In this document: one piece after another, positions 23,923 to 28,737 of the stretch
Numbering within the stretch: the first letter of the stretch is position 1
Layout: every line of letters begins with the position of its first letter
DNA from: an uncultured virus (IMG/VR IMGVR_UViG_2615840715_000006)
Taxonomy: Duplodnaviria; Heunggongvirae; Uroviricota; Caudoviricetes
Strand: one strand, 5' to 3'
DNA: 64,000 bases
Virus record (IMG/VR): IMGVR_UViG_2615840715_000006
Position numbers and translations under genes: made by a program
Notes under the pieces: generated by a model
Told to the model about the DNA's origin: nothing
The model's input: only the letters and a program-made list of their open reading frames with translations
Databases searched by the model: none

Positions 23923-24017
23923 TCTCCGGCACTGCCGGAACTCCCGCCGCGCGCCCTGCGCGGCTCGGGGTCGTAGGAGGCGCCGCATGACGCGGGCCCG
24001 AATACGGAGACGATCCC

Positions 24018-24590
24018 ATGACCAAGCTTTCTGACACCCAAGCCATCATCCTCAGCGCCGCCGCACAGCGCGAGGACCGCATCGCACTGCCGCTGCCCGA
24101 GAGCCTGCGCGGCGGCGCCGCTGCCAAGGTGGTCGGCGCGATGCTCGCGAAGAACTTCCTGCAGGAGGTCGACGCCGACACGCGCAAGGGCGAGCTTATG
24201 TGGCGCGAGACCGGAGACGGCCACGGCGTCACGCTGGTTGCCACCGACGCGGGCCTTGCCGCCATCGGGATCGAGACCGAGGACGCGAACCCCGCGCCTG
24301 CGGGCGCGACGGACGCGCCTACCGAGGAGGCCGCGCCGGACACCCCCACCGTAGCCGAAACCGCGCCCAAGACGCGCACACCGCGCGAGGGCACCAAGCA
24401 GGCCACGCTGATCGCCATGCTGCGCGCACCGGACGGCGCGACCATCGAGGAGATCATGGCCGCGACGGGCTGGCAGTCGCACACGGTGCGCGGCGCGATG
24501 GCGGGGGCGCTGAAGAAGAAGCTCGGGCTCGAGGTGACCTCGGAGAAGGTCGAGGATCGGGGGCGCGTGTACAAACTCCCCGCCGCCTGA
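24018..24590 (+). CDS. DUF3489 wHTH protein
   Basis: GTKQA..GATIEEI..TGWQSHTVRG..LKKKLGL. Confidence 0.85.
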   Translation: MTKLSDTQAIILSAAAQREDRIALPLPESLRGGAAAKVVGAMLAKNFLQEVDADTRKGELMWRETGDGHGVTLVATDAGLAAIGIETEDANPAPAGATDAPTEEAAPDTPTVAETAPKTRTPREGTKQATLIAMLRAPDGATIEEIMAATGWQSHTVRGAMAGALKKKLGLEVTSEKVEDRGRVYKLPAA

Positions 24591-24614
24591 CGCGCCGGAC
24601 CCCGACAAGCTGAT

Positions 24615-24641
24615 GACCGCCGTCCCTACGGGGCGGCGGTC
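24615..24641. terminator. Hairpin between convergent genes
   Basis: GACCGCCGTCCC-TAC-GGGGCGGCGGTC; analogous hairpin at 52818..52843. Confidence 0.6.
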
Positions 24642-24643
24642 GA

Positions 24644-24868
24644 TCATTTGGCGCTCCGCATCCGGATCGCCTCGAACACCCGCCGCAAGGCGAAGGAACG
24701 GGCGATCGAGACGACGGTGAAAATGGCGCCCATCTTCAGGTTCTGCGCCAGCGTCGTGTGCAGCCCGAAGATCGGGAAGATCAGGATCTGCGTCACGACC
24801 GCGACGCCGTAGCCGACGATCACGTTGGCGACGGACTCGACCAGCGACATGAGGCGGGTCTGCTTCAT
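24644..24868 (-). CDS. Small two-TM hypothetical protein
   Basis: 74 aa; paralog at 52847..53071. Confidence 0.75.
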   Translation of the reverse strand: MKQTRLMSLVESVANVIVGYGVAVVTQILIFPIFGLHTTLAQNLKMGAIFTVVSIARSFALRRVFEAIRMRSAK

Positions 24869-25604
24869 GCCGCTGCCTCATCCATCGGCCAGCAGTTCAG
24901 CCGCGAGAGTTCGCAGCGCATGCGCCGCAACCAAGGGGACCACGCCGTTGCCACAGAGGCGAAGCCGGTCCACCCGGTGGGCCAACCCATCAGTGCCTCG
25001 ACGAACAGCGGGTTCAAGGTCCGGCGCGGCTCGGAGGTATCGCTCCCAGCCATCGGCGTCACCAGGACCTGGCGGCCAAGCAGGCCGTTCACCGGCGTGT
25101 TCGCGAGTGTCGTCGCCCCGTCCTTGTGATCCCGCGCCGTCGGCGTCATCCACAATCCCACCGCATGGGTCAGATCGGCCGTCTTGCGGTTGCCCGCGCT
25201 CGGCTTGCAGCCGTCGTTCGCCATCGGCGTCGGCCAGTCCCGCGCCATGCGGTCCAGACCCTTCTCGTCTCGTCGTTCGCCGCCCCGGCTGCGGAAACTG
25301 TCGGTCTGCGGCGTGGGCCACATCGCAGCCGTGGTCGCCAGGTTCATGCCGTGCTGGCCCGCTTTCTGCGACGGCGTCGGTATTGTCTGCCTGTTCTCGT
25401 TGGCGCTGGCCCTTGGCGTCGGCCAGAGCCGCAGCAGTTCCGTCCGGTTCCCGCCACTCGACCGGGTGCCAGAGCAGGCGCGCGGGGTCGGCCAGCTCGT
25501 CCCCTTCGCGGATGGCGAGGATGAAGAGCCGCTCGCGCTTGTGGGGCGCGCCGACTTCCGCCGCCGTGAAGAGGCCTGCCGCAAGGCGGTAGTATCCGTC
25601 TTGG

Positions 25605-26540
25605 TCAAGCGGGTCTGTCGACCCATTTCCGGCCGTCGCGCAGCAGCGCGTTGGCCAGCAGGACGAGCTTGCGCATGACGGCGGTGATGGCGACCTTCGG
25701 TGCCTTTCCACTTTCGATCAGCTGGCGGTACTTGCACTTGAGGGCCGCGTTAAACCGAATCGCGACGAGGGCCGGCATGAAGATCGCGGAACGCAGGGTC
25801 GCGCGCCCACCACGGATCATCTCCTTTCCCTTCCACTTGCCGGAACGGCGCGTGAACGGCGCCAGACCGGCGAGGCTCGCCGCCTGTTTCGGCTCGAGGG
25901 TCCCGAGCTCGGGCATCTCTATTAGCAGCATGCAGGCGGTCACGGCGCCGATGCCGGGAATGCTGGTGAGGATATCGAGACGCCCGGCCAACTCAGGATC
26001 ATCGGCGATCCTGGCGGCGATGGTCTCGTCAATCTCGACGAGCTGCTTCTCGATGATGGCCAGCCGCGCTTTCGCCTGGCGGCGGATCAAGCCGATCACT
26101 GCCTTGTCAGTGCGGTTCCCCGTAGCAGTCCGGTCCTTGATCAGCGCCAGCCGCGCGACGTGCAACTCTCGCAACTCATTCATGAGTTCGCCGCGAACCG
26201 GCCGCGGCGGCAGATCGAGCGCGAGGCCCATCCGCGCCAATAGCATGGCATCCACCCGATCGGTCTTGGCCTGCGTCCCCGTGGCCTCCGCGAAGCGGCG
26301 CGCCTGTCGGGGATTGACCTTGACCAGCGCATGGCCCGCCCTTGCGAGCGCTTCCTCCATTGCGCGATGATAGGGGCCGGTCGGTTCGTAGACGATCCGC
26401 AATCCTTCGGGGTTGCCGATCCATCTCAGCAAATTCTTGAACCCCGCCTTGTCGTTGCCGAACCCCTTGTGCTTCCGATCCGAGAGCCGGAACGCGTCCA
26501 GACGGTCTTTTGATATGTCGATGCCGATGATATCCTGCAT
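25605..26540 (-). CDS. IS110 DEDD recombinase/transposase
   Basis: GIDISK, YEPTG, KTDRVDA, SIPGIG, RRSGK serine loop. Confidence 0.95.
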   Translation of the reverse strand: MQDIIGIDISKDRLDAFRLSDRKHKGFGNDKAGFKNLLRWIGNPEGLRIVYEPTGPYHRAMEEALARAGHALVKVNPRQARRFAEATGTQAKTDRVDAMLLARMGLALDLPPRPVRGELMNELRELHVARLALIKDRTATGNRTDKAVIGLIRRQAKARLAIIEKQLVEIDETIAARIADDPELAGRLDILTSIPGIGAVTACMLLIEMPELGTLEPKQAASLAGLAPFTRRSGKWKGKEMIRGGRATLRSAIFMPALVAIRFNAALKCKYRQLIESGKAPKVAITAVMRKLVLLANALLRDGRKWVDRPA

Positions 26541-26730
26541 CCGTCTTTTCCTTACCTCTGCTTGTCATGCAGGCCCGAAGCCCTGCTATCCGTTCAGGTC
26601 ATGAGAAAAGACAGGGGCGATCACACTACCGCACGGCCCATAACGACCGACCCTTTATCGATCCGTCCCCCGCCGCTACCCGGCATATTTGGGTGCCGGG
26701 CAGCAACTCCCTTATCGCAAAGGAGCCGAG
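26541..26730 (-). ncRNA. Bridge RNA (boundaries approximate)
   Basis: 5' hairpins plus two internal loops carrying TAAAGGG/GCGGTAG and ACGGATA/GACAAG guides. Confidence 0.8.
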
Positions 26731-27215
26731 GGAAGTCATAAGACAAGCCCATGCCGACCAGTCCTGCGGCGACTTCGGGGAAGCCGAGGCGGAGATGATG
26801 GGCGACATTCTCGAGGAAGACGAAGGGCGGTTCGACCTCGCCGATGATGCGGGCGACATGCGGCCAGAGGTGGCGCGGGTCGTCGGCGCCCCGGCGTTTG
26901 CCCGCGACGGAGAACGGCTGGCACGGATAGCCCGCAGTGACGATGTCCACCGCGCCGCGCCACGGGCGGCCGTCGAAAGTTGCAACATCGTCCCAGACAA
27001 CAGCCTGATCCAGGGACGCGTCTTCCATCCGCGCCACGAGAGTGGCTGCGGCGAAGGTTTCCCGTTCGACATGGCCCACAGCACGATATCCGGGGATGGC
27101 GATGGTGAGCCCGAGGTCGATACCGCCCGCGCCGGAGCAGAGGGAGAGGCCGAACAGACATGCGTCTCCGGCTCCGGAAGCGTCTCCGGAGGAAGGTAGA
27201 GCCAGGTCATGCATG

Positions 27216-28580
27216 TCACGCGGCGGTCTGGCGCTTTCGCGCGGGTTCGGGTTCGGCGTCCGTGTCCGGCGTATCGGTGACGTCGCCCAGCCGCTCCGCC
27301 TTCACCTGCGCGAAGGTCCGGCCGTCGCCGTCGAGGATCGCGTCCTTGTCGGTTTCGGCCTGCCAACGCTCCACGGCGACATCGACATACGCCGCGCTGA
27401 TCTCCATTGCGAAGACGCGGCGGCCATTGGCCTCGCCCGCCATGATCTGCGACCCGGAGCCGGAGAACGGCTCATAGCAGAGGCCGCCCCGCGCCACATG
27501 CTGGCGCATCGGGATCCCGAAGGCGTCGAGCGGCTTCGGCGTCGGATGGTCAGGCCGGTCATCCTTGGCGAAGCTGGGAAGCGCCCATGTCGATGGCAGC
27601 GTTTCCTCGGCCACCTTCGGCGGGCGGTTCGGGCGACGCCAGCCCATGAAACAGGGCTCGTGCTTCCAGAGGTAATGCGACCGGGTCAGGACGCCCCGGT
27701 CTTTCACCCAGATGATTTGCTGATGCACAAAGGCGCCTGCCTTCTCCCAGCAGGCTTCCAGCATCGCCTGGCGGCGCGAGGCGTGCCAGCAGTACCAGGC
27801 AGCATCCTCGGCGATGGCTTCCGCCACGGCTGCAGCGATGAACCCGTCATAGAGTTCCGCGCCCTGCGAACTGTCGTCCCAAGTCGTGCCGTAGGACGCC
27901 GACCAGTCCTTGTTGCGGGTCGGATGGTTCGAGCCGTCGTAGTCGACGAGATACGGTGGATCGGTCGCGAAAAGGATCGCGCGCTCACCGTTCATCAGGC
28001 GGCGCACATCGGCCGCGCTGGTGCTGTCGCCGCAGAGCAGCCGGTGATCGCCGAGGATCCAGAGATCGCCCGTCCGCGACGCCGGATTGCGTGGGGGTTC
28101 GGGGATGGTCACCGGCGGCACGGAGCCCCCGGCGCCCTCTTCCTCGCCGCCACCGTCGAGATCGAAGGCCAGCAGCTTGTCGAGTTCGCCATCGGAAAAC
28201 CCGACCAGCGACAGGTCGAAGTCTTCGGCCAGCAGGTCGTTCAGTTCCGCCGACAGCAGCGCCTCGTCCCAGGTGCCGAGTTCCGTCAGCTTGTTGTCCG
28301 CAATCCGGTACGCCCGGCGCTGCGCTTCGGTCAGGTGCCCGAGCACGATCACCGGCGCCTCGGTCAGCCCGAGCTGCGTCGCGGCCAGCACGCGCCCGTG
28401 GCCTGCTATCAGTTCGCCGTCCTCGCCGACGAGGCAGGGCACGGTCCAGCCGAACTCGGCCATGCTGGCGGCGATCTTCGCGACCTGATCCGCGCCATGC
28501 GCCTTCGCGTTCTTCGCGTAGGGCTGGAGGCGCGACAGCGGCCACGTCTCGATCGCGTCCGGGGCGAAGCTCAACGTCAT
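27216..28580 (-). CDS. ParB-like N-domain + N4/N6 DNA methyltransferase (beta class)
   Basis: IAGHGR, IADNK, HRLLCGDS, DPPY, HPTPKP, EPFSGSGS. Confidence 0.9.
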   Translation of the reverse strand: MTLSFAPDAIETWPLSRLQPYAKNAKAHGADQVAKIAASMAEFGWTVPCLVGEDGELIAGHGRVLAATQLGLTEAPVIVLGHLTEAQRRAYRIADNKLTELGTWDEALLSAELNDLLAEDFDLSLVGFSDGELDKLLAFDLDGGGEEEGAGGSVPPVTIPEPPRNPASRTGDLWILGDHRLLCGDSTSAADVRRLMNGERAILFATDPPYLVDYDGSNHPTRNKDWSASYGTTWDDSSQGAELYDGFIAAAVAEAIAEDAAWYCWHASRRQAMLEACWEKAGAFVHQQIIWVKDRGVLTRSHYLWKHEPCFMGWRRPNRPPKVAEETLPSTWALPSFAKDDRPDHPTPKPLDAFGIPMRQHVARGGLCYEPFSGSGSQIMAGEANGRRVFAMEISAAYVDVAVERWQAETDKDAILDGDGRTFAQVKAERLGDVTDTPDTDAEPEPARKRQTAA

Positions 28581-28737
28581 GATGGGCACGGTTCCTCGGT
28601 CGGGTGGATGCCGGTGGCTTCCGGACTCCGGATGCCGGGCCGGACTCCACACGGGGTCCAGCGGCCACCAGCGGTGTCCGGTCGGAAGGCCAGCGTTCAT
28701 TGGTGTTTGCGCGGGGCGCGCGTGGCTCCGGCTTCCG

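Follow-up and report, generated by a model that had tools for sequence, protein, structure and literature searches.

A predicted bridge RNA in the left end of an alphaproteobacterial IS110-group insertion sequence, with target guides that covary with the insertion flanks

Introduction

Bridge RNAs have been known since 2024, when they were predicted for 85.7% of the catalogued members of the IS110 group (Durrant et al. 2024, PMC11208160); hence, a bridge RNA is to be expected in the IS110-group insertion sequence described here. The element lies on the minus strand of a 64,000-nt stretch of DNA (the window), where a recombinase gene is preceded by a long non-coding left end. Does this left end encode a bridge RNA, and do its guides account for the site at which the element sits? 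A first-pass annotation of the window had proposed an RNA of the IS621 type, with a CT core and with a target loop followed by a donor loop, beside a small IS110 recombinase. We examined the protein, the element boundaries, the fold of the left end and the agreement between guides and flanks across relatives from genomes, metagenomes and plasmids.

Results

An intact IS110-family recombinase

The recombinase matches PF01548 (82.4 bits) and PF02371 (70.7 bits), and scores 221.9 bits, against a cut-off of 140, with the NCBIfam model NF033542, 'IS110 family RNA-guided transposase'. Among solved structures searched with phmmer, the best match is ISCro4 (9t56; E 2.6e-33, residues 4–303 against 10–316), a distant relative, and the same residues 4–303 align with the IS621 transposase (8wt6; E 8e-33, 117 bits). 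In the phmmer alignment, D8, E52, D94, D97 and S233 stand opposite D11, E60, D102, D105 and S241, which are the catalytic residues of IS621 (PMC11208158). Against seven relatives, dN/dS is 0.10–0.15 with dS of 0.40–0.58, while the left ends of relatives are 93–95% identical. The description of the 311-aa protein as compact is fair, but the length is unremarkable in a family whose members are given as ~300–460 aa (Durrant et al. 2024, PMC11208160). Elsewhere in the genome we found a second, different IS110-family recombinase gene (G000 C37:9112-9981; 208.7 bits, in an open frame of 474 aa) and a recombinase fragment of the same family with an in-frame TGA (G000 C34:81435-81707; 62.5 bits).

Boundaries of the element and empty sites

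Read on the minus strand, the left junction is GCATGGG-CT-TGTC (CT = 26747-26746) and the right junction is ACGGATA-CT-ACCGC (CT = 25592-25591). The element measures 1155 bp plus one duplicated CT, and full-length relatives align with it from end to end (query 1–1157). The coordinates of all features are collected in Table 1. Non-coding sequence amounts to 205 nt at the left end and 12 nt at the right end, the combination of a long left and a short right non-coding end by which the IS110 group is described (PMC11208160); a 2-bp CT core that is found at both ends, and once per empty site, is likewise a feature of the group.

The insertion interrupts a C5 DNA methyltransferase gene; excising the element together with one CT brings the C-terminal half of the gene back into frame. 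Elsewhere on the contig, this methylase gene has two paralogues that are intact, and both read GGTCGGCATGGG-CT-ACCG, with a single CT. In addition, contigs from two public runs join position 25590 to position 26746, skipping 1155 bases with two ambiguous (shared) letters. Together, the single-CT paralogues and the contigs that skip 1155 bases settle both the boundaries and the target, and so bear out the pre-insertion site that the first-pass annotation had reconstructed. All of the strings that it quoted are present where it had placed them on the minus strand, as are the intervening hairpins GCAGG...CCTGC and CGGTC...GGCCG, the second of which has one G.U pair.

The methylase-bearing region occurs three times on one contig (G000 C20, near 16194 and 84506, and at 24000-28700 of the window). 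The two copies with an intact methylase are 88–93% identical to the flanks of the interrupted copy. Neighbouring genes in the window encode a 494-aa protein with an N6/N4 methylase domain (27216-28700), a DUF7220 protein (24644-24868) and a DUF3489 protein (24018-24590). The region looks like a repeated mobile or prophage-like module.

Table 1. Coordinates of the element, the predicted RNA and the interrupted gene
Feature	Positions	Strand	Basis
Whole IS110-group element with both CT cores	25591..26747	minus	Junction strings; end-to-end relatives; single-CT empty sites
Recombinase gene, 311 aa, DEDD RuvC-like and Tnp domains	25605..26540	minus	PF01548, PF02371, NF033542
CT core, left end	26746..26747	minus	Sequence
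CT core, right end	25591..25592	minus	Sequence
Left target flank GCATGGG	26748..26754	minus	Same flank in L002 (one change), L013, L031, L033, L036
Right target flank ACCGC	25586..25590	minus	ACCG in 10/12 independent right flanks of the group
N-terminal half, C5 DNA methyltransferase	26748..27214	minus	PF00145, 85.4 bits, profile positions 4-112; TIGR00675 also matches
C-terminal half, C5 DNA methyltransferase	24878..25591	minus	PF00145, 18.7 bits (below cut-off 22), profile positions 135-169
-10-like hexamer TATGAC	26735..26740	minus	Left end
-35-like hexamer TTGACC	25603..25608	minus	Right end; would be spaced 17 nt from the -10 in the circle only
Predicted bridge RNA, ~175-185 nt	26544..26728	minus	Putative start from the junction promoter; end from the donor-module basal stem
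5' hairpin 1	26705..26727	minus	Fold and covariation on left ends
5' hairpin 2	26675..26704	minus	Compensatory changes in 11/11 pairs (alignment A2)
Target-binding module, 65 nt: outer stem, internal loop, inner hairpin	26610..26674	minus	Fold and covariation
Target loop 5' strand GATAAAGGGT with left target guide	26650..26659	minus	First-pass register 26657-26651 (TAAAGGG)
Right target guide GCGGTAG	26626..26632	minus	Reverse complement of CT+ACCGC
Candidate handshake guide UG, target loop	26624..26625	minus	U would face donor A7, G would face donor T6 (wobble)
Donor-binding module including basal stem	26544..26609	minus	Fold and covariation
Left donor guide ACGGATA	26587..26593	minus	Equals the last 7 bases of the right end
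Right donor guide ATGACAAG	26561..26568	minus	Ends in GACAAG, reverse complement of CTTGTC
Candidate handshake guide CA, donor loop	26559..26560	minus	C would face target G at -1 (10/10 group sites)

The left end folds into a conserved RNA structure

We collected relatives of the element by scanning a genome collection (L002-L030) and metagenomes (L031-L042), and from a plasmid collection in which 105 records matched and eight were used (L043-L050). These relatives, from alphaproteobacterial genomes, metagenomes and plasmids, are annotated, if at all, as 'IS110 family transposase'; their donor ends, ACGGATA-CT-TGTC, and their RNA architecture are those of the window copy. The structure was set by hand as two 5' hairpins, a target module and a donor module. 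Across 18 distinct left ends, 98.4% of cells pair, as compared with 40–49% when the partners are slid, and the figure is 96.8% for 20 left ends that include plasmid relatives with 64–66% identical DNA. In the set of 20, both sides change in 24 of 37 pairs, and none of 500 shuffles reached the covariation score. This test left out hairpin 1, the basal donor stem and the two lowest base pairs of the donor inner hairpin; the first two were dropped because MAFFT misplaces gaps there. The basal donor stem, in which (G)UCUUUUC...ACCU pairs with AGGU...GAAAAGA(C), varies in step in other lineages. Folded as a single sequence, the left end has a z-score of -2.86. An Rfam search of the region found no family beyond chance, the best match being an unrelated IRES model (E 0.12).

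Two candidate features of the fold were set aside. In the fold given by RNAalifold, the right donor guide is paired with the six initial bases, CTTGTC; these bases lie in DNA upstream of the likely RNA start, and the pairing is an artefact that merely restates the complementarity of the guide to the right donor. A terminator-like match inside the target module (26632-26617) is no more than shuffles give (mean 1.1). We also observed that the 3' strand of the basal stem (minus strand, 26544-26560) covers the purine-rich stretch before the start codon of the recombinase; folding of the RNA could hide the ribosome-binding site.

Donor guides match the ends of the element

The donor guides match the element's own ends at 7/7 and 6/6 positions. 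We defined the donor pattern as the left-donor 7-mer together with the reverse complement of core and right donor within 8–45 nt; this pattern arose in only 10 of 200,000 mononucleotide shuffles of the left end, and the donor guides are thus far beyond chance in the window alone. The ACGGATA guide is invariant in the window, in all 36 readable loci and in the eight plasmid relatives. Since donor loop and element ends are invariant in every relative, the donor side gives no covariation.

Target guides covary with the flanks of the insertion

In the window itself, the right target guide matches its flank at 7/7 positions and the left target guide at 4/7. A target pattern defined as the RTG 7-mer plus an upstream 7-mer that matches at 4/7 positions or more with GGG arose in 2558 of 200,000 shuffles (p ~0.013). 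This is weak in the window alone, and the case for the target loop consequently rests on comparative evidence. As a search of its 4.98-Mb genome found the window copy to be the sole copy, there are no further same-genome copies from which to build a target logo, and insertion sites were taken from other genomes, metagenomes and plasmids.

Members of the close group (full-length matches, 85–89% identical DNA) read GAGAATGGGT ... GCGGTAG, and so have the same right guide as the window copy. Of their 12 independent right flanks, ten begin with ACCG, one with GCCG and one with ATCG. Ten independent left flanks have G at -1 in 10/10, G at -2 in 9/10 and G at -3 in 4/10; at -4 they have A or T in 10/10, in a window with 67% G+C. 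The first-pass annotation had placed the preferred target near TAAAGGG-CT-ACCG, expecting GGG-CT-ACCG at other insertion sites, and had proposed a target logo as the check. This preference is not supported: the sites that we collected mostly keep ACCG and the two G residues next to the core, but not the third. About half of them match the guide better when it is shifted by one base from the register of that annotation. Taking the better of the two frames, ten group sites match at a mean of 5.0/7 positions, as compared with 2.33 for 6538 background CT sites, and none of 200,000 simulations reached 5.0/7.

Other lineages carry other target guides, and these agree with other flanks. In the sister group (65% identical DNA), TTTCCCTCT or TTTCCCGCT is combined with GGAGGAG; the sites are (T)TTCCCT|CT...CT|CCTC or TATCCCG|CT...CT|CCTC. 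Among the plasmid relatives (64–66% identical DNA), L046 has the guide TGAAACG at a site reading TGAAACG|CT, and L050 has TAACACC at TAACACC|CT, each a 7/7 match; on the right side, GCTAGAG is found beside CT|CTAGC. We compared guides with flanks in 22 guide-site pairs from 10 guide classes of relatives. Cognate left guides match their left flanks at a mean of 5.36/7 positions, as compared with 2.45/7 for 364 non-cognate pairs, and no class permutation out of 100,000 did as well. For right guides and right flanks, the means are 3.72/4 for cognate pairs (n=18) and 1.0/4 for non-cognate pairs (n=292). Misses were kept in the counts (L043, 3/7; site E, 3/7; the right flank of L050, 0/4); L014, in which the right guide matches its own flank at 1/4 positions, lies outside the 22 pairs.

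Several of these loci have peculiarities of their own. A longer motif, GCCTTTTTTA.CAC.TCCC, is common to the left flanks of L040, L041, L039 and L035, although these come from different metagenome contigs and are dissimilar apart from it, which suggests that the natural target of the sister group is a repeated sequence, for example a terminator-like element. The right flank of L050 (1497-1530), CT|TGTTTTGATCG, is like the start of the left end, CT|TGTCTTATGAC, and unlike its own right target guide; it may be the remnant of a tandem or donor-like target. L014 (1283-1500) has a 10-base insertion in the hairpin of the target module, the right guide GCTATGG beside the flank CT|GCCG and a weaker protein match, and looks like a decaying copy. 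L012 (378-1500) is interrupted by ~1.1 kb of other DNA at element position ~303. In L008 (1296-1301), the first six bases are GCGCCC instead of CTTGTC, and the left junction is rearranged.

The frame of the left target guide

The guide GAGAAUGGGU is associated with two classes of natural insertion, ...ATGGG|CT and ...GAATGG|CT, each of which fits the guide at 5–6 of 7 positions, one base apart. The plasmid relatives use loop positions 3–9, which is the frame of the first-pass annotation; the sister group uses positions 2–8, with CT at 9–10. Neighbouring lineages have one frame or the other fixed, and the group of the window copy is split between both. In this group, moreover, the letter that would match the core has disappeared from the two left guides together. 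It is conceivable, though we think it unlikely, that the left target guide lacks one fixed reading frame relative to the cleavage site. If this were true, a slip of one base would be tolerated in left-arm pairing, and the left guides could do without pairing to the core, which bears on off-target rules and on guide design.

The left target guide of the window copy has changed

The left end of the window copy differs from the consensus of 14 other left ends of the group in ten columns. Five of these are in stems, and all five are C to U changes that leave G.U pairs on the minus-strand transcript and are private or nearly so; three fall in hairpin loops, and the remaining two, 26657 and 26654, in the left target guide. 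None of the 14 other left ends shares the letters at these two positions: all read GAATGGG, and the window copy alone reads TAAAGGG. Six other contigs (L002, L004, L013, L031, L033 and L036), all with the guide GAATGGG, carry the element at the same methylase site, which fits GAATGGG at 6/7 positions and the window guide at 4/7.

The first-pass annotation had taken the 4/7 match as a sign that the recombinase tolerates distal mismatches in the left arm. This is not supported, because the two mismatched letters are private to the window copy and the guide of its relatives fits the site well. On the simplest reading of the sequences, a GAATGGG guide picked the site and the window guide changed afterwards; the 4/7 match more likely reflects this later drift than tolerance of mismatches. 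Among the copies that share the site, identities of element and flank roughly track each other, with the window copy as the outlier and L031 and L036 as the closest pair in both. This agrees with a single old insertion that has travelled with the methylase-bearing element, though repeated hits on a favoured site in co-diverging hosts may instead account for it; on neither account does the match call for tolerance of distal mismatches.

Alternative explanations

We considered whether the left end might be a mere 5' untranslated leader with subterminal repeats that bind protein, so that the apparent guides are read as DNA. The donor side lends itself to such a view: as DNA, the donor guides repeat the right end directly and the left end in inverted orientation, their invariance in all relatives leaves them without covariation, and the donor module extends with its 3' strand into the ribosome-binding region. 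However, end repeats cannot explain why the letters of the target loop covary with sequence outside the element; moreover, the stems show both G.U-preserving and compensatory changes on one strand, and the family of the protein has been shown experimentally to use an RNA of this kind (PMC11208160, PMC11208158). We consider a leader of this sort very improbable. An IS1111-group or seekRNA-like element, with its guide RNA in the right end and with incidental matches on the left, would share the Pfam domains found here, but only 12 bases separate the stop codon (25605) from the right-end core, which leaves no room for an RNA, and in IS1111 elements both the right end and the subterminal repeats are described as long (Durrant et al. 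2024, PMC11208160); we give this possibility next to no credence. The protein family, the covariation of the RNA and the covariation of guides with flanks all support the IS621-type RNA of the first-pass annotation, and we conclude that the 205-nt left end of the element very probably encodes a bridge RNA.

A different question is whether this copy still moves. The bridge RNA gene could be real and the copy a stranded relic, inherited with the methylase-bearing element, with a drifted guide and no further transposition, in which case the guide letters seen here record history rather than current specificity. The window copy is single in its genome, and the two identical target sites on the same contig are empty, on which grounds it may be immobile; the two private substitutions in the left target guide and the rough agreement of element and flank distances among site-sharing copies point the same way. 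Against this, the recombinase is intact, has all catalytic residues and has a low dN/dS, even if the selection may predate the insertion, and none of the five stem changes breaks a pair. That the copy is such a relic seems to us quite possible, if rather doubtful.

Comparison with IS621

The likeness to IS621, as that element is described in PMC11208160 and PMC11208158, extends from protein to RNA. Both have the same two recombinase domains, with the DEDD and Ser residues aligned, a CT core, and a long left end with a very short right end. In both, a 5' stem-loop region is followed by a target module of 65 nt (nucleotides 34–98 in IS621) and a donor module; the 5' strands of the loops equal the top strand of the left arms, and the 3' strands complement core and right arm. 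The candidate -35 in the right end and the candidate -10 in the left end would also correspond to the arrangement in IS621. In IS621, two 'handshake' letters follow each right guide (PMC11208158). At the level of sequence, the first such letter fits the non-cognate DNA in both loops here, as it does in IS621: U of the target loop faces donor A, and C of the donor loop faces target G at -1. Of the second letters, one would form a G.T wobble and the other is mismatched.

The proteins are distant (311 aa here, 328 aa in the deposited IS621 chain), and two 5' hairpins stand in place of the single '5' stem loop' described for IS621. The right target guide is longer here, with four non-core bases plus the core, and the natural sites fall into two registers one base apart. 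A further difference concerns the core, which pairs in all four guides of IS621 as described. The right guides of our element end in AG and so include the core, but its left guides do without the core letters: in place of CT, TC stands after the target guide and GC after the donor guide, and the G after the donor guide pairs into a longer inner stem. The core is thus not present in all four guides. In the outgroups (sister and plasmid lineages), both left guides have C at the first core position, and in IS621 itself the left donor guide is described as pairing over only 8 nt (PMC11208158). Pairing of the core by all four guides is a feature of IS621 rather than a definition of the family.

A model for expression and use of the RNA

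Transcription, the ends of the RNA and recombination activity are drawn here by analogy with IS621. In the circular element, a split promoter formed by TTGACC of the right end and TATGAC of the left end would drive an RNA of ~180 nt. The junction reads TTGACC-17 nt-TATGAC, in which the -10 hexamer has C at position 6, where our scan rule requires a final T; scanning the integrated element sequence only, we found no promoter-like sites. TTGACC is kept in all of the right ends listed except that of L014. Six RNA runs contained 6–8% of sampled words, and in the four examined these came from contigs of relatives, which carry no strand, ends or level and so do not speak to transcription; stretches left uncovered there are equally uninformative. 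The predicted RNA would consist of the two 5' hairpins, the target-binding module and the donor-binding module. In each internal loop, the 5' strand, which repeats the top strand to the left of the CT core, would pair with the bottom strand, and the 3' strand would pair with the core and right arm that it complements. The DEDD and Ser recombinase would use this RNA to join the ACGGATA-CT-TGTC junction to an (R)AATGG(G)-CT-ACCG target.

Discussion

In our assessment, what the left end holds is a genuine bridge RNA, that of an uncharacterised alphaproteobacterial IS110-group element. That the protein is an RNA-guided transposase is already stated by the name of the NCBI family model NF033542. 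With 311 aa, the recombinase lies at the small end of its family and is a possible extra orthologue. What the locus adds is a natural alphaproteobacterial series in which identical donor ends are combined with at least 10 different target guides and with real as well as empty sites. This series is a ready data set on the drift of target guides; among other things, it takes in the two-letter change private to the window copy, the frame in which the left guide is read and the core pairing that has been lost.
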